Assembly (NCBI GenBank): GCA_951406725.2
Contig: OX597824.1
Span: forward strand, 75,764,001-75,828,000
Source: Octopus vulgaris
Lineage: Eukaryota
Reading direction: 5' to 3'
DNA length: 64,000 nucleotides
Shown here one piece after another: positions 19,260-45,261 of this stretch (the stretch's first letter is position 1; each line of letters opens with the position of its first letter). Made by a program: the position numbers and the translations under genes. The notes beneath the pieces were generated by a model. That model saw only the letters and a list, made by a program, of their open reading frames with translations. It ran no database searches and was not told the origin of the DNA.

Positions 19260-19688
19260 TACAACTTCTCTTAGTTTAACATTATTTTTCTAGCCTAAAT
19301 AATAGCCAGAATGGCAAACTAACCGAGTCATTTGAGCATCGGATAAGAATGCTTTGTAGTATTTGTATCAACTTGATTCAATCTTTAATTTAGAACACGT
19401 TCAAAACAGGAAGTCTGTACCATAAAATCAAGAATGGTCTCAGGCGGTTTGATATCAAAAGAGCAAGTATGTTTAATAACTATTATATTTAATAACTTAT
19501 GACTTCAAAACAACGCGTGTTTAATATTAAGTATGCTTAATAGCAAATATACTTAGGATCAAGGAAGCTTGGTAACGAATGTCTGTTTAATACTGTTTAA
19601 TGCCTGTTTAATATTGAGTAAATTTAATGCCAGAAGCGTATTTAACAACACGTGTAATAAATATCGAATGTATCTAATATCTGATACC

Positions 19689-20287
19689 TATTTCTTTACT
19701 ACCCACAAGGGGCTAAACACAGAGGGGACAAACAAGGACAGACATAGGTATTAAGTCGATTACATCGAACCAGTGCGTAACTGGTACTTAATTTATCGAC
19801 CCCGAAAAGATGAAAGACAAAGTCGACCTCGGCGGAATTTGAACTCACAACGTAACGCAGACGAAATACCTATTTCTTTATTACCCACAAGGGGCTAAAC
19901 ACAGAGAGAACAAACAAGGACAGACGTAGGTATTAAGTCGATTACATCGACCCCAGTGCGTAACTGCTACTTAATTTATCGACCCCGAAAAGATGAAAGG
20001 CAAAGTCGACCTCGGCGGAATTTGAACTCAGAACGTAACGCAGACGAAATACCTATTTCTTTATTACCCACAAGGGGCTAAACACAGAGGGGACAAACAA
20101 GGACAGACATAGGTATTAAGTCGATTACATCGACACCAGTGCGTAACTGGTACTTGATTTATCGACCCCGAAAGGATGAAAGGCAAAGTCGACCTCGGCG
20201 GAATTTGAACTCACAACGTAACGCAGACGAAATACCGCTAGGCATTTCGCCCGGCGTGCTAACGTTTCTGCCAGCTCGCCGCCTTTA
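19689..20287 (-). mobile_element. SINE family C head-to-tail trimer
   Basis: Three ~183-bp units with a single head at the right end; TSD atatctgatacc around the whole array. Confidence 0.9.
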
Positions 20288-25190: not shown

Positions 25191-25925
25191 GATGTCTATG
25201 TTCAAAGGATTAAGATTTTAAAAAATTCTATGGCTTATTATTTCTAATTCACTGTGACAAAATGTATTTTCCAATTTCTGGCCTCCACATGTTGACTTAA
25301 TCTCTCTTAGTCCTGTCTAAGTTCTTGTTAATCCATTAAGTCTACTATAGTATTGCTTTCTTTCACTAATAATTTATTGCTTTTGTTTTAAATATCAGAT
25401 AATACTGGTGTATTTCTTATTTTATATGTTTTTTTATTACAGTTTTGTTTTAATTTCTAGTCTATTTTGTTAGTTTGCTTTATCTTTTTATTTTAATATC
25501 GTATTTATGAACAACAGTGTTGTTTGTTGCAGGTTTCTAACAAGCCTATCACTAACTTCACTGCATTTCTGACTATAAGAATAAACAAGGGAGTGTAATA
25601 TAATCTACTGATAAAAATATATTTGAAGGCACTTCATTCATAACGCACCATTTGTCTGGTTTTCTTTACCGATGTTTATATTCTCCACCGATAAAGAGAT
25701 TGTTTCAAAGGGTATAACAAATATTTTAAATGGGATGCAAACATGATTAACGCGATTAAAAAGCTCGCTTCGCAACAGTGTGCTTTCAGGTTTAGTCCCA
25801 CAGTGCGTCTCCTTGGACAAATGTCTTATACGATAATGTTTTGTTGGACAAGCGTCGGCTATTATAGCCTTGGACCGATAAAAGCCTGGTGAGCGATTTT
25901 GGTAGACATAAACTCTGTGGGGTTG

Positions 25926-26940
25926 TGTTGAGTCCGAAAGGGATTTGAGTTCGTAGAGTGAAAATGTAGCGTTGTTCCAGGCGGAGTCTAGAGTTGGTGG
26001 ATCCAGTGAGGTTTGAGGTGGAGTGGCCGGCCAAGCGAGAGTGACAGGCGACAGGGGTGTTCTTACGTAGACGATACAGTAAATAAGGCTTGACGAAGTG
26101 CAGGAGAAGGAGTTCCTAATGAAGAAGGTGTTGTGGTTGGATCCAGTGACGGAGGAGGTGTTGGTGATGAAAGGACAGGTGTGGTAACAAGGTCTGGAGC
26201 AAGGGAAGGATCCAGGATCCGGGCTGGATGAGAATGGAGGAGGGGAGGGAGCTAGGGACCAGTAGATCGCGTAGGTTACGGTCACTTTTGAAGGAGGGGA
26301 AGGGTGAGTTGGGAAAATAGGGAGGGTGCTGGGATCTATCTTCCGACGAATGGGTAGGTGGAGGGGTGGAAAAGGAGGGGAAAGGGGATGCAGTTGGGGG
26401 AACGGTGTGACGGCGGTAGTGCGATCAATTAGACGAGCGCGGGTAATGTCAGTCTGGACAAGGGTGGATGGGTATCCGCGATGCATGAACAAGTGGGCCA
26501 GGTACTGGGACCGGGTCTCGAAATCCTGGTCCCAGCTGCACTGGCGTCGGAGGCGGAGAAACTGGGAGTAGGGGATGGCCTGTTTGGTGTGGGATGGATG
26601 AAAGGAGGAAAAGTTGAAGCAGAGGTAGGAATCTGTGGGTTTAAAGAAGGTGGAGGTGGGTAAGGGGATCAATGGAGGAAGAGATATCGAGGAAGTTTAC
26701 GGCGGTACCAGAGATGGTAGAGGTGAATTCAAGAGAAGGGTGGAAGTTAGAAACGAAAGAGATGAAAATGGAGAGATGTTCGCGGGAGAAAGAGGCAACG
26801 CCAATGCAGTCGTCTATATAGCGACCGTATAGCTCTGAGATCGGTCTGAAGAACTGAGAATATTCGGACATCAACGTAACCAACAAATAAGTTGGAAAAA
26901 TTGGGGCCCATTCTCTTTCCCATAGCAACGCCAAAGAACT
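25926..26940 (-). pseudogene. Penelope-like element, 5'-truncated: RT C-terminal half, Cys-rich linker and partial GIY-YIG endonuclease
   Basis: GVAMGKRMGPNFSNLFVG, YGRYIDDCIG, VNFLDI, KPTDSYLCFNFSSFHPSHTKQAIPYSQFLRLRRQCS and GSFPCSRPCYHTCPFI...FSCTSSSLIYCI; frameshifted. Confidence 0.9.
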
Positions 26941-26946
26941 GCTGGT

Positions 26947-27403
26947 TTTATTTAAAAATCAAAGTACAAAGTTCGGTTAAAATCCATGCTCTTCTGATAT
27001 GTGCCGCCTTCTAACTTTGATAGAAGGTTGCTTGTCAAAAATGAAGCAGATTTATTCTCAATGGAACTGTTTTGAAGAATTATTTTTCTTAAGGGACCGT
27101 CAGAATAAGTAAGACTTTAAAAAATATGACCTTGGGATCGATGTGTTTAACTAAAACCTTTCAGAGCGATGCTCAACCATCACCGCAGCCCAGTGGCTGA
27201 AACAAACAAAAGATAAAAGATAAAAATAATCCACGAACAAAATTAATTTTAAAAAATGATGTAAAAGAAAAAAAGAATTTCTTCAAAACAGTTTCAATGA
27301 GAATAAAGCTGCTTCATTTTATCATTCTATCAAAGTTAGAAGACGGCACAAATCAGAAGAGCATAGAGTTTAAACGAACTTTGTACTTTCATTTCAAAAT
27401 AAC
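26947..27403. repeat. Inverted repeat with ~135-bp arms around a SINE fragment
   Basis: aaagtacaaagttcggttaaa...ctgttttgaagaa versus ttcttcaaaacagtt...tttaaacgaactttgtacttt. Confidence 0.85.
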
Positions 27404-30018: not shown

Positions 30019-30608
30019 TTGGGTTGTCAGAGAAGTTCGTGCCGATTTTTAAAGGAAAGAAAAAGCTCAATAAATACTTGCCATTACATTTTTAATCAAC
30101 CTAATATGAACCATTTTGTTGCACAATGCGTCTCCATCTTTCCTTTAACTTGAAAATACCCTCTCTCCAGAATTGAGGTGGTTTCATGGCAAAGAATTCA
30201 TCAAGGTATCTTTTTACGTCATTCAAGGAATTGAAATTTTTACCATTAAAACTATTCTGCAGAGACCTGAATAAGTGGAAATCCGAAGGAGCAATATCTG
30301 GTGAATATGGAGGGTGGGGTAACACATCCCAGCCGAGCTGCAGCAATTTTTGTCTGGTTCCCAAAGCATCAAGTGCCGAAAATGAACTTTCTTATCTTCC
30401 ATTTTAAATGGTTACAGAATTAACACAGGTTATAGTAACATAAACTTTTTTCCACGAAAAGATAGCTTAAACTGTGCTCTAAATGGAGGTGTAGTCAAAT
30501 CCTATTTTATGGACTCAACCGTGTTCTAAAATAAGTCGAAAGGTAAGCTACTATAAATCGGCACGAACTTTTATGTATATATAAGACTTATAAAAGTCTT
30601 ATGACAAC
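30019..30608 (-). mobile_element. Mariner internal-deletion derivative
   Basis: TIR ta|ttgggttgtcagagaagttcgtgccgattt; ORF remnant TRQKLLQLGWDVLPHPPYSPDIAPSDFHLFRSLQN...RWRRIVQQNGSY; the other TIR (aaatcggcacgaacttt...) is interrupted. Confidence 0.9.
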
Positions 30609-30986
30609 AACAACAACAACAACAACACACACACATATACACAATATATATATACATAATATCACATTATATATTCTTCGAGAAAAGGATGAAAAAAGCT
30701 CTTCGTTACAGAGCGGATGAATGCATTGTTTTACATCGCTTTTATTCCCTCCGGAATAATCTTAATGCTTTCTTCGAAACATAACACCCCCACCACCCCG
30801 CCCTGACCCTAGCCACATTCAGATGGCTGATCCCCCTTATGTTATAGAGCAGTTACTGTCTATATCTCGCTCAGAGATTTATTATTGTTTTCGAACGGAT
30901 TTTCTACGCCAGTGACTGTGGTTACTGTGAAAATCCCTATAAATCCAGCCTGTGGGGGAAGTCCCTCAACGAAGAGCGGTGCTTAC

Positions 30987-31029
30987 CATACGTTGACAAG
31001 AGGCAATAACCTCGAAACCGGTCCATATG
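30987..31029 (+). ncRNA. Type I hammerhead ribozyme, U3:A8 core variant (unit 1)
   Basis: catacg-TTGACAA-gagg caataa cctc-GAAA-ccgg-TC-catatg; predicted cleavage after GUC at 31023. Confidence 0.8.
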
Positions 31030-31346
31030 TAGTATCCGTATCTTCGGGGAGGCTGATCTCCCTTTGCAGGCTGGCAAGGACACCGAGATGGTGTCAGCCC
31101 TTCTGGTGACGTTGATGTTCGCCTGGGGCTAAATGCATCAGTAACACCCCCACCACCCCGCCCTGACCCTAGCCACATTCAGATGGCTGATGCCCCTTAT
31201 GTTATAGAGCAGTTACTGTCTATATCTCGCTCAGAGATTTATTATTGTTTTCGAACGGATTTTCTACGCCAGTGACTGTGATTACTGTGAAAATCCCTAT
31301 ATATCCAGCCTGGAGGGGAAGTCCCTCAACGAAGAGCGGTGCTTAC

Positions 31347-31389
31347 CATACATTGACAAGAGGCAATAACCTCGAAACCGGTCCGTATG
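31347..31389 (+). ncRNA. Type I hammerhead ribozyme, U3:A8 core variant (unit 2)
   Basis: cataca-TTGACAA-gagg caataa cctc-GAAA-ccgg-TC-cgtatg; predicted cleavage after GUC at 31383. Confidence 0.8.
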
Positions 31390-31637
31390 TAGTATCCGTA
31401 TCTTCGGGGAGGCTGATCTCCCTTTGCAGGCTGGCAAGGACACCGAGATGATGTCAGCCCTTCTGGTGACGTTGATGTTCGCCTGGGGCTAAATGCATCA
31501 GTAACACCCCCACCACCCCGCCCTGACCCTAGCCACATTCAGATGGCTGATCCCCCTTATGTTATATATATATATATATCTGTAAAATTAATATGTGACA
31601 ATCCGGCCATCGAAAAAATGCATTTTTTCGATGGCTA

Positions 31638-31698
31638 GATAACTGAAGAGATGGCGGCGTGGGTTTCTACCTCAACATCCGAAACTCGGAGTTTTATC
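31638..31698 (+). ncRNA. Type I hammerhead motif in a short inverted-repeat-flanked module (31581-31735)
   Basis: gataa-CTGAAGA-gatg...catc c-GAAA-ctcggag-TT-ttatc; stem I gataa/ttatc, helix III ACTCGGAGT, GUU triplet. Confidence 0.7.
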
Positions 31699-32125
31699 AT
31701 GGCTACCGTATAATTATCACATTAAATTTTACTGATATATATACATATACGTAAGACTTCTTCATTTTTCCGAGCGTCAAACTAATACACTTGCTTGTTG
31801 CTCATACAACTGTCTTCGTCTTTTGCTTTTCTATAAATTTCAATTATGCATATATATATATATATATCAATAATAATAAAGAGAAAAATTAATTAATTAA
31901 TTTTTCATATCGATCTAATTCTCAAACGCGTCCACAGGTAATCAAATGCAGAGTGAATTTCGTTTTTTTTTCTTTCTGCCTACGTGAATTGTTTTGAGTA
32001 TATGGTGTCCGGGAGTTTCTTCTTATAGTAGAAGAAATAGCTAAGTTCTTTGGCTGCTATTTCAAAAGTTCGGTATGTGGTGAAGCAAATTCTTTTGCTG
32101 AACCCTAATTATAATTATACTCGTA

Positions 32126-41836: not shown

Positions 41837-42590
41837 GCGAGCTGGCAGAAACGTTAGCACGCCGGGCGAAGTGCTTAGCGGTATTTCGTCTGCCGTTACG
41901 TTCTGAGTTCAAATTTCGCCGAGGGCGACTTTGCCTTTCATCTTTTTCGGAGTCGATTAAATAAGTACCAGTTACGCACTGGGGTCGATATAATCGACTT
42001 AATCCGTTTGTCTGTCCTTGTTTGTCCTCTCTGTGTTTAGCCCCTTGTGGGTAGTAAAGAAATAGGTATTTCGTCTGCCGTTACGTTCTGAGTTCAAATT
42101 TCGCCGAGGGCGACTTTGCCTTTCATCCTTTCGGGGTCGATAAATTAAGTACCATTTACGCACTGGGGTCGATGTAATCAGCTTAATCCCTTTGTCTGTC
42201 CTTGTTTGTCCCGTCTATGTTTAGCCCCTTGTGGGTAGTAAAGAAATAGGTATTTCGTCTGCCGTTACGTTCTGAGTTCAAATTCCGCCGAGGTCGACTT
42301 GGCCTTTCATCCTTTCGGAGTCGATAAATTAAGTACCAGTTACGCGCTAGGGTCGATATAATCGACTTAATCCGTTTGTCTGTCCTTGTTTTTTCGCCTC
42401 TGTGTCTAGGTATTTCGTCTGCCGCTACGTTCTGAGTTCAAATTCCGCCGGGGTCGTCTTTGCTTTCATCCTTTCGGGGTCGATTAAATAAGTACCAGTT
42501 ACGCACTGGGGTCGATGTAATCGGCTTAATCCGTTTGTCTGTCCTTATTTGTCCCCTCTATGTTTAGCCCCATGTGGACAATAAAGAAAT
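41837..42590 (+). mobile_element. SINE family C head-to-tail tetramer nested in the head of a family A SINE (41815-42995)
   Basis: Four units; TSD taagaagcttgc / taagaatcttgc; the host SINE resumes at ttcccgcccacatggttccggg. Confidence 0.9.
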
Positions 42591-43266: not shown

Positions 43267-44061
43267 GAAGATACAAATGATTTAATAACATCTTGAGCGT
43301 TTGTCTCCATTTTCTAATCTTCACCTAACTCTAGACCAATCAAAACTTCAGTAAATACAGCAAAATGACCCTTAAGAGAATCAACCAGCCAGAATGACTG
43401 ATGACCGTTCTCCACAGGGAAGCCAACCAGGCAGAAAAACAAATTTGACCACCGGAAAAACAAGTCGTCACCAGTACTTTAACGAATCAAAAGACAGATC
43501 CGCTCGCGGAAAAAATTATAAATACACCGAATTCCAAAACACACTGTTACAAGCGGAAGTTCCTACACATGACGGAAAGAGGATCAGAGAAATTGTAAAC
43601 CAAATCCCTTTATTTTACAATCTTCATTTCTCCCTTGTTTTTCCCTCTTACCTCAGCTTGACTGAAACTTTGATGATATTCATTTCTTGTTGATCACTAC
43701 TAACACTAATGAGCTTTGTACATTCAAACAAAATGATGCACAGTTTTAATATCATTGACTGTTATGATCATTTAAATTTGTCAACATCGAAATTTTTGAA
43801 CATGCTTTTCTAATTCATAATTCTAAATTTATCTGTTGTGAAAATTTTAATTTGTTAACATTGAAACTTTTAAAGATGTTTTTCTAATTCATAATTCTAA
43901 ATTTTTACCATTGATAAAACAAAAATATTGTTGAAACTAGTTTGGTATATATGTAAATAAATTTATTTTAAACAATTACAAGTTTTTCAAATTTAGGTGC
44001 ATTTTCAACAACAAATGTGCCTATACTTTTTCCTACGTGGAAATACATTCCCTCTTTTGTA

Positions 44062-44542: not shown

Positions 44543-45261
44543 GGAATCTTTACCTTTTGACCGACAGATTTAGAAAATAATTTTTTTTAACTAAACACTT
44601 TCAAACTTCGGACACTGGTAGAATTGTGTCATATAAAACATCTTTTACTCTTAGCAGTTTTGATAAAAACTTATATTTACGAAGTTATTTCACGTTAAAG
44701 TTGTCCTATTTCGGTAATTTCAACCAAACAATGACGTGTATTCAGCTGAATAAAATTACTGAGGTTGTTCGTCAACAGCAACTATCGGCGGTGTATTTTT
44801 CGTTTGTCAGTTATTTATGACTTCGTTCATGCGTTTGTACTGGTTTTAGCTTTAAGGCTTTAGGGTTAGGGTTAGGATTTTAGGGTTGGGGTTTTAGGGT
44901 TAGGGCTTTAGGATTAGGGTTAGGGTGTTAGTGTTAGGATTTTGGGGTTAAGGTTAGGGTTTTAGGGTTAGGGTTAGGGTTGTCATAAATAACAGTGACA
45001 AGCGAAATATACACCGCCGGAAGTTCTTGTTGACAAACAACAGCAGTAATTTTATGCAGCTGAATACACATCATTGATTGGTTAAAATTACCGAAATAGG
45101 ACAAATTTAACGTGAAATAACTTTGTAAATATAAGTTTTTCTTAAAAATGCTATGAGTAAAAAATGTTTTATATGACACATTCTACCAGTGTCCGAAGTA
45201 CGAAAGTGTTTAGTTACAAAAAATTATTTTTTAAATCTGTCAGTCAAAAGGTAAAGATCCC
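44543..45261. mobile_element. Fold-back MITE with ~280-bp TIRs and a central degenerate (TTAGGG)n tract
   Basis: Arms 44543-44821 and 44982-45261 (ggaatctttaccttttgac / gtcaaaaggtaaagatccc); telomere-like repeats 44840-44981. Confidence 0.85.

Follow-up and report, generated by a model that had tools for sequence, protein, structure and literature searches.

The window analysed in this work (the whole stretch of 64,000 nucleotides from Octopus vulgaris) carries a tandem array at 30782-31566. With good probability, this array is a 5'-truncated member of a non-coding retrozyme family with a 360-bp unit and a structurally conserved U3:A8 hammerhead ribozyme; the family is dispersed in the genome and was likely mobilised in trans by the RT and GIY-YIG endonuclease of a Neptune-type Penelope-like element (PLE). 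On the features that can be tested from sequence, the element is a metazoan non-LTR retrozyme and not an autonomous PLE, with its cleavage and its circle predicted. The element class, the U3:A8 variant and the link between retrozymes and PLEs are already published; the surprise is limited since the class and the core variant are known. The PLE insertion footprint of the family is new. This end signature, given here in numbers, and the near-intact PLEs of the same genome make the partnership and the circular-template step directly testable.

Structure of the array

The array has a period of 360, 2.2 copies and 97% matches (TRF). Its two full units differ at 30832, 30921, 30942, 30953, 30954, 30992, 31025 and 31091, which confirms the 2.2-copy array with 8 substitutions that had been reported in a preliminary description of this DNA. 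The longest ATG ORF overlapping the array has 70 aa, in agreement with the claim that no credible ORF is present. No PLE protein match was found over the array, and an RT and GIY-YIG ORF is absent from it. The unit had also been called GC-rich; its GC content is above that of the flanks (33-35%) but is itself only 50%, and the other copies and the sister families have 39-49%. All motifs named in that description were found where it had placed them, and its inner stem cagtgac/gttactg is perfect in unit 1 but not in the other unit. The features of the insertion are as follows.

30782..31566 (+): whole insertion, a 5'-truncated array of 2.2 units; it starts at monomer position 119 and ends (31566) at monomer position 183, the fixed short end of the family
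31024..31383 (+): cleavage-to-cleavage monomer of 360 nt, 50% GC, predicted to be a branched rod with both ends paired
30987..31029 (+): hammerhead 1, with core 30993-30999, stem II 31000-31013 and predicted cut after C31023; in stem I the 5' strand (30987-30992) is intact and the 3' strand is mutated at 31025; helix III is palindromic (region 31016-31022)
31347..31389 (+): hammerhead 2, with core 31353-31359 and predicted cut after C31383; in stem I the 5' strand is mutated at 31352 and the 3' strand (31384-31389) is intact
30945..31074 (+): helix around hammerhead 1, formed by ccagcctg/caggctgg and inner stems; the equivalent in unit 2 is 31305-31434
31079..31095 (+): gacacc/ggtgtc hairpin, with both-sided changes in sister families H, E and F (alignment by eye)
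30847..30889 and 31207..31249 (+): internal copies of the "tail" of about 42 nt (monomer 184-226), between the two fixed 3' end points
30938..30943 and 31298..31303 (+): TATA-like box, about 50 nt upstream of the core
31567..31579 (no strand): (TA)n tract at the 3' end of the array, the putative target site, common to the neighbouring hammerhead element

The monomer folds more stably than shuffled sequences, both in linear form (z -3.2) and in circular form (z -3.3 and -3.6, with 61-63% of positions paired), and the internal tail copy contains a small hairpin. Comparison of the flanks gave no clear target duplication at this insertion. Of the PLE-type ends described below, the insertion shows the short end alone, plus a truncated 5' end. 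The sequence just before the array (30670-30781) is also repeated. The segment at 30250-30571 is a very high-copy repeat that, by eye, we take to be a minus-strand fragment of a mariner-type transposase.

Hammerhead ribozyme and its conservation

Each full unit carries a type I hammerhead with a UUGACAA core (U3:A8 pair), GAAA and an NUH site. The cores lie at 30993 and 31353, and GAAACCGGTC lies at 31014 and 31374, which places the predicted cuts after C31023 and C31383 and the monomer at 31024-31383. The ribozyme hairpin is more stable than shuffles (z -4.9), and its predicted fold has a bulged stem I and a hexaloop 2. An Rfam search returned no hammerhead match, even at E up to 10.

Covariation was scored in 19 sequences that were hand-picked from 104 distinct motif contexts across sister families. 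In this set 92.5% of the cells are paired, and both sides have changed in 12 of 14 pairs. The covariation score is 0.54 compared with 0.27 after shuffling and at most 0.19 with slid partners; none of 500 shuffles reaches 0.54, a figure that is not a probability because shuffling takes no account of relatedness. Of the 19 sequences, 15 have U-A and 4 have C-G as the 3:8 pair, and none has a mismatch there. Over all motif matches, which include duplicated loci and pattern-selected matches, the 3:8 pair is U-A in 194, C-G in 37 and mismatched in 5. Helix III, a 6-nt palindrome at this locus, is palindromic in 19 of 19 sequences despite sequence change. At the base of stem II, 8 of 19 sequences have a mismatch, and family A has G-C. 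Core position 7 varies (C in 50 and U in 8 of 60 cores). Since the stems and the 3:8 pair covary across sister families, the hammerhead fold is conserved, and the proposed hammerhead with a compensated U3:A8 pair is supported by these 19 sequences, its cleavage being a prediction.

Stems I and II are intact in 110 of the 132 family ribozymes that have the exact core. Inside the family the core shows 3 changes in 1,390, among loci many of which were selected on the exact core, and for this reason the low core variation was left unused as evidence.

The preliminary description had put much weight on U3:A8. The pair is real, but its weight was overrated, as it is a published natural variant that occurs also in Penelope-like ribozymes. 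U3-A8 has been described as a natural covariant that is stated to be active in vitro (PMC3088659), and U3-A8 hammerheads have been reported in Schistosoma PLE ribozymes with about 1,300 matches (PMC4209133). In our census with the U3:A8 pattern, the pair occurs in all three ORF-bearing PLE families and in most of the retrozyme families seen, which suggests a lineage-wide shift. Thousands of hammerhead motifs of this genome would escape a search that requires CUGANGA. Sister-family variants with a CCGACGA core (C3:G8 with U4C) and 8-nt helix III palindromes were also observed (locus L087, 2200-3031; locus L074, 900-1950).

Predicted double hammerhead and the fate of this locus

Where helix III has only two pairs closing two nucleotides, it has been described as unstable, and ribozymes of this kind are proposed to act as dimers (PMC4209133). 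The palindromic helix III points to a double hammerhead, which changes the site that could be cleaved at this locus; the preliminary description had missed this. For the array, the fold energies are -251.6 kcal/mol for the double hammerhead, -239.1 kcal/mol for two single ribozymes and -254.6 kcal/mol for the unconstrained fold. The same order (unconstrained, double, single) was obtained at six other loci. At 7 of 7 loci the double-hammerhead fold beats the two single folds by 6.5-14.6 kcal/mol. The active fold is not the ground state, since the unconstrained fold is lower in energy by 0.8-6.8 kcal/mol.

In the predicted double fold, the two ribozymes exchange stem I strands. The hybrid ribozyme that would cut after C31383 has 6 of 6 stem I pairs and the hybrid for C31023 has 4 of 6. 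The one CpG-type stem I mismatch per copy that had been reported is present (31025 and 31352), and in the double fold both mutations fall in one hybrid. This locus is therefore predicted to cut once, only at C31383, and would release no monomer. The earlier suggestion of an attenuated locus agrees with the 4 of 6 pairs of the C31023 hybrid, both of whose mutations are CpG-type. In the family, both ribozymes are intact in 16 of 23 adjacent pairs. CpG-type changes are the commonest among the single-copy changes (G>A 59 and C>T 63 of 261), and the window copy is a slightly decayed member of its family.

The family in the genome

The genome searched comprises 2.8 Gb in 227 contigs. The monomer search gave 143 matches from the 40 scored of 1,764 candidates. 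The exact family ribozyme gave 189 matches compared with 0 for the reversed control pattern. These searches bear out the idea of a genome-wide retrozyme family. A looser U3:A8 pattern gave 2,458 matches compared with 7 in the control and revealed several further families. Four sister families are collinear with the unit over 343-360 nt, namely H (84% identity), I (79%), E (60%) and F (49%), where family F connects to the unit solely via family G (local alignment). Copies of the family are scattered, and no locus holds more than about 5 units.

The family had been suggested to be a cephalopod one. This fits the ORF nested in a sister family, whose only protein relatives are Octopus bimaculoides records. 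No report of a retrozyme from a cephalopod came up in literature searches, though existing repeat libraries or supplements may already include the family. The available part of a 2026 Octopus repeat annotation (PMC13282606) does not mention ribozymes.

The nested ORF was considered as a sign of a protein-coding retrozyme, and this was rejected. The RRM/CCHC ORF unit is a separate element that enters sister family E at positions 321-355. It has its own AATAAA 3' end, its target is duplicated at several loci, and its arrays occur also without a ribozyme. Several observations were made on this one-gene element (loci L181-L187 and L298-L350 of genome G000). It encodes about 450 aa with zf-CCHC and ZCCHC3/RRM-like features (Atlas features), and its family has 14,348 candidates with dN/dS of 0.07-0.46. 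This ORF1-like element inserts into sister retrozymes a short way downstream of the TATA-like box and stacks in 1.8-kb arrays with no adjoining RT. Retrozymes that carry it are still mobilised with PLE-type ends (L183). Separately, two loci (L007 and L008, at 67.41 and 67.47 Mb of G000:C1) show the same insertion and flanks in opposite orientation 61 kb apart, which is either an inverted segmental duplication or an assembly duplicate.

Insertion footprint

Insertion ends were mapped at 96 loci. These consist of 27 of 30 loci from the monomer search (three duplicates were dropped), 10 loci from the tail pattern and 59 more. All 96 were chosen by likeness to the unit, the tail or the ribozyme, and the read-through counts and the core conservation are inflated as a result.

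Among the 150 segments at these loci, 86 have their 3' end at monomer 178-186, 54 at 218-230 and 10 elsewhere, and none ends at the ribozyme site. The two fixed 3' end points (140 of 150 segments) thus lie about 42 nt apart and are distant from the ribozyme site, a point that the preliminary description had missed. Inverted pairs of one short arm and one tailed arm were found at 44 of the 96 loci. In a subset of 38 loci, which includes one duplicate, (TA)4 adjoins 42 of 60 3' ends compared with 4 of 16 5' ends. In these same 38 loci, non-TA duplications of at least 7 nt were found at 8 compared with 0.4 in mismatched flanks. No LTR-internal-LTR layout was found among the 96 mapped loci.

The structure described for PLEs combines partial tandems with an inverted truncated copy and a tail at one of the ends (bioRxiv 10.1101/2021.04.23.441226; PMC3846280). 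In an Anolis PLE, the tail has been reported to lie between two internal RT start sites (PMC11167929). The family insertions bear this PLE footprint, which is new evidence that a PLE enzyme is likely to have mobilised them. The Penelope-type mobilisation that had been proposed is thereby backed by the 140 of 150 ends at two points and the 44 of 96 inverted pairs.

Two fixed 3' ends and a tail, one per inverted arm, are a PLE signature. We consider it highly improbable that the array arose as a SINE or minisatellite through a LINE or unequal crossing-over and that its hammerhead-like motif is dead or due to chance, although 5' truncation and inversion occur with LINEs too, the genome is LINE-rich and Rfam has no match. 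Such a reading also conflicts with the window having no tRNA gene, with the lack of poly(A), with the dispersal of copies at no more than about 5 units per locus, and with the covariation of the stems and of the 3:8 pair.

Search for the partner enzyme

The queries used to find a partner were the tail pattern, the sister families, PLE protein, the old PLE fragment of the window and Pfam GIY-YIG. Family B is a young, near-intact PLE with ORF1, an 819-aa RT-EN frame and 25,756 candidates, and families D and K are further young, ORF-bearing PLEs of the genome. We assume all three to be Neptune-type on account of a zinc-finger linker that precedes the endonuclease. Each of the three carries U3:A8 hammerheads, and those copies that were inspected end in (TA)n, some with an extension.

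The 3' half of the unit shows no homology to the region behind the ribozyme in families B, D and K (z -1.4 to -1.0) or to family C (z -0.4), and the positive controls of the same comparison gave z 39.7 (family E) and 25.9 (family G). No homology of the unit to PLE sequence was found at 30 GIY-YIG loci. The searches of the genome, in which the census of PLE families is incomplete, gave no homologous pLTR of an autonomous PLE. As no homology links the unit to the PLE families examined, the partner PLE is assigned at the level of its class.

These comparisons bear on whether the unit could be the pLTR of an autonomous PLE not yet found, with the arrays as products of truncation or deletion. We consider this improbable. 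Xenopus retrozymes do resemble pLTRs, and the three ORF-bearing PLE families seen have a U3:A8 core. However, 96 of 96 mapped loci consist of tandem or inverted unit sequence (they were mapped with the unit, and a part was screened against PLE proteins), the arms run from unit to unit and not into an ORF, and the homology is lacking both to the four other ribozyme families and to PLE sequence at the 30 GIY-YIG loci.

Two candidates were rejected. At L324/L344 an RT-EN fragment stands directly before a sister-family ribozyme, but its ORF breaks off inside the endonuclease, and this is more likely an insertion into an old PLE. Locus L064, considered as the end of a PLE ORF, holds another tandem retrozyme. 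The window itself contains a degraded, GC-rich PLE fragment at 25641-26960 on the minus strand that extends from the RT thumb to the endonuclease linker. It belongs to an old family with 975 candidates at 72-81% identity.

Promoter and transcripts

The TATA-like box may be an internal promoter. An AT-rich box occupies its position in the sister families, and a TATA box has been described in Penelope pLTRs (PMC3846280).

Contigs from eight runs were compared with the unit. Six of the runs were guessed to be RNA and two are of unknown kind; none is recorded as RNA. At the private sites of the window locus (30942, 31025, 31281, 31313 and 31352) every contig has the other letter, so no contig derives from this locus. 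The control failed, as contigs covered the supposedly silent flank, which is itself high-copy repeat sequence. In each of two runs from a single study, both guessed to be RNA, one contig spans the entire unit and joins back onto itself (387 and 390 nt; depth 7-8; 11-14 differences from the window copy), whereas in two genome-sized contig sets the unit is fragmented. The self-closing contigs hint, weakly, at transcription of some homogeneous member of the family; a circle, a tandem transcript and DNA look alike in such contigs.

Template of the enzyme

The proposed mechanism would begin with a read-through transcript of a tandem locus, made from the internal TATA-type promoter. A double hammerhead would then form between neighbouring ribozymes, held together by the palindromic helix III, and cleavage after GUC would release a 360-nt monomer, which a host ligase may circularise. 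The observed footprint places the starts of the cDNA at monomer 183 and about 225, mostly in (TA)n, presumably through the PLE enzyme. There are often two back-to-back cDNA arms, one per start point. The ribozyme site does not clearly halt copying, which continues for up to 3.5 units; the simplest template would be a circular monomer.

The 5' ends of the segments are scattered over the unit, and 11 of 150 fall no further than 10 nt from the cut site, where about 8 are expected. With no enrichment at the cut site, nothing indicates a cut linear RNA as template. One ribozyme site is passed by 113 of 140 segments (a count inflated by selection), two by 27 and three by 2, and the longest segment has 1,261 bp. 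Stops at the second ribozyme site number 7 of 34, a count confounded by selection for full monomers.

Copies within a locus resemble each other closely. Divergence is 1.6% between tandem units of a locus, 1.4% between inverted arms and 4.7% between loci. Common non-CpG alleles are concordant in 268 and discordant in 23 comparisons of tandem units (92%), with 15% in the between-locus control; across inverted arms 315 are shared compared with 19. Eight alleles that are confined to one locus occur in all copies of that locus. This sharing of alleles fits copying from one monomer, most simply a circle, and a circular template has already been proposed for retrozymes in the literature. Young homogeneous source arrays, or template jumps, would produce a similar concordance of alleles. 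A-to-I edits fixed in the copies were looked for as well and were not seen (A>G 1 compared with T>C 2, in a small sample of 17 rare locus-wide alleles).

The same element and PLE could instead have used an uncut linear multimer, or a monomer recopied by jumps, with no need of a circular RNA and with a ribozyme that is minor or protein-dependent. We find this rather unlikely, with points on both sides. An Anolis PLE has been reported to use mainly unprocessed RNA and to need protein for cleavage; ribozyme mutants had no effect on its insertion and no reads ended at the cut site (PMC11167929). In Xenopus, only 1 of 9 retrozyme dimers was cleaved in vitro, which counts against the proposed ribozyme step. 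The segments of the octopus family likewise show no pile-up of 5' ends at the cut site, and PLEs form partial tandems even in clades that are free of ribozymes. Against these points, a linear template with constant 5' truncation cannot lengthen arrays, yet 27 of 140 segments span at least two sites and one reaches 1,261 bp. The eight cases of single-locus alleles present in all copies of the locus and the retention of the ribozyme fold across families that are only 50-60% alike are also difficult to reconcile with it.

As a tentative reading, to which we give somewhat less than even chances, the family may be the record of a Penelope-type enzyme that circles one 360-nt RNA, primed from both strands of a cut (TA)n at two internal sites, with a partner that recognises RNA structure and not sequence. 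If true, this copying of a circle would settle the proposed partnership of retrozymes and PLEs and explain the tandem regeneration of the PLE type. In vitro tests with a young, intact octopus Neptune enzyme would then also have a minimal circular substrate.

Comparison with known systems

The element is consistent with the metazoan non-LTR retrozymes described by Cervera and de la Pena (2020, PMC7229834). Both have a non-coding tandem unit (350-390 bp in mussel), one type I hammerhead per unit, a self-paired monomer, duplications of more than 4 bp and co-existing PLEs. The 360-bp unit falls inside the range of 150-450 bp given for metazoan non-LTR retrozymes. Compared with those described there, the octopus element differs in its U3:A8 core, its GC content (50% compared with under 45-50%) and its dispersed short arrays with a clear PLE end signature, and it is known from sequence alone. 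The words "Octopus" and "cephalopod" are absent from the main text of that paper.

The copying of animal retrozymes by PLEs was proposed earlier from co-occurrence and pLTR likeness. In the text available of Li, Clavereau and Pollet (2026, bioRxiv 10.64898/2026.07.22.740005), animal retrozymes are likewise taken to use PLE enzymes. The argument there is from co-occurrence and pLTR homology in 35 genomes, with no mollusc among them, whereas the argument here is from the insertion footprint. Unlike those retrozymes, the octopus unit shows no pLTR homology in the families examined.

The core pair is identical to that of the Cercyon PLE hammerheads of Schistosoma mansoni (PMC4209133) and of natural U3-A8 examples (PMC3088659), and the Cercyon hammerheads also have a palindromic helix III predicted to need a dimer (PMC4209133). 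The Cercyon motifs are reported as minimal and mostly single, with about 1,300 matches, whereas the octopus element has a 6-bp stem I, a 4-bp stem II, a long enclosing helix and a tandem unit.

The element shares with the Neptune and Poseidon PLEs (bioRxiv 10.1101/2021.04.23.441226; PMC3846280; PMC11167929) the partial tandems, the inverted 5'-truncated copy, an optional tail on one end, AT-rich targets, a ribozyme in the repeat and a putative TATA box. Unlike the PLEs described in these sources, it has no RT or endonuclease, the whole element is the repeat, and its tail has about 42 nt compared with 30-40 nt.

Other hammerheads and repeats in the window

A second, unrelated small repeat lies behind the TA tract at 31573-31749 on the plus strand and carries a canonical type I hammerhead. 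This hammerhead has its core at 31643-31649, a 5-bp stem I, a long stem II, a near-palindromic helix III and a predicted cut near 31693. The repeat has 1,684 candidates, its copies are fold-back insertions in (TA)n, and it also looks PLE-mobilised. At 43903-43950 (plus strand), right behind a duplicated unit of 74 bp at 43759-43904, there is a single AT-rich hammerhead-like motif of the U3:A8 type, whose helix III is palindromic. A degenerate interstitial TTAGGG tract is found at 44852-44981. Tandem units of 183-184 bp at 19684-20236 and 41880-42550 resemble SINE multimers.
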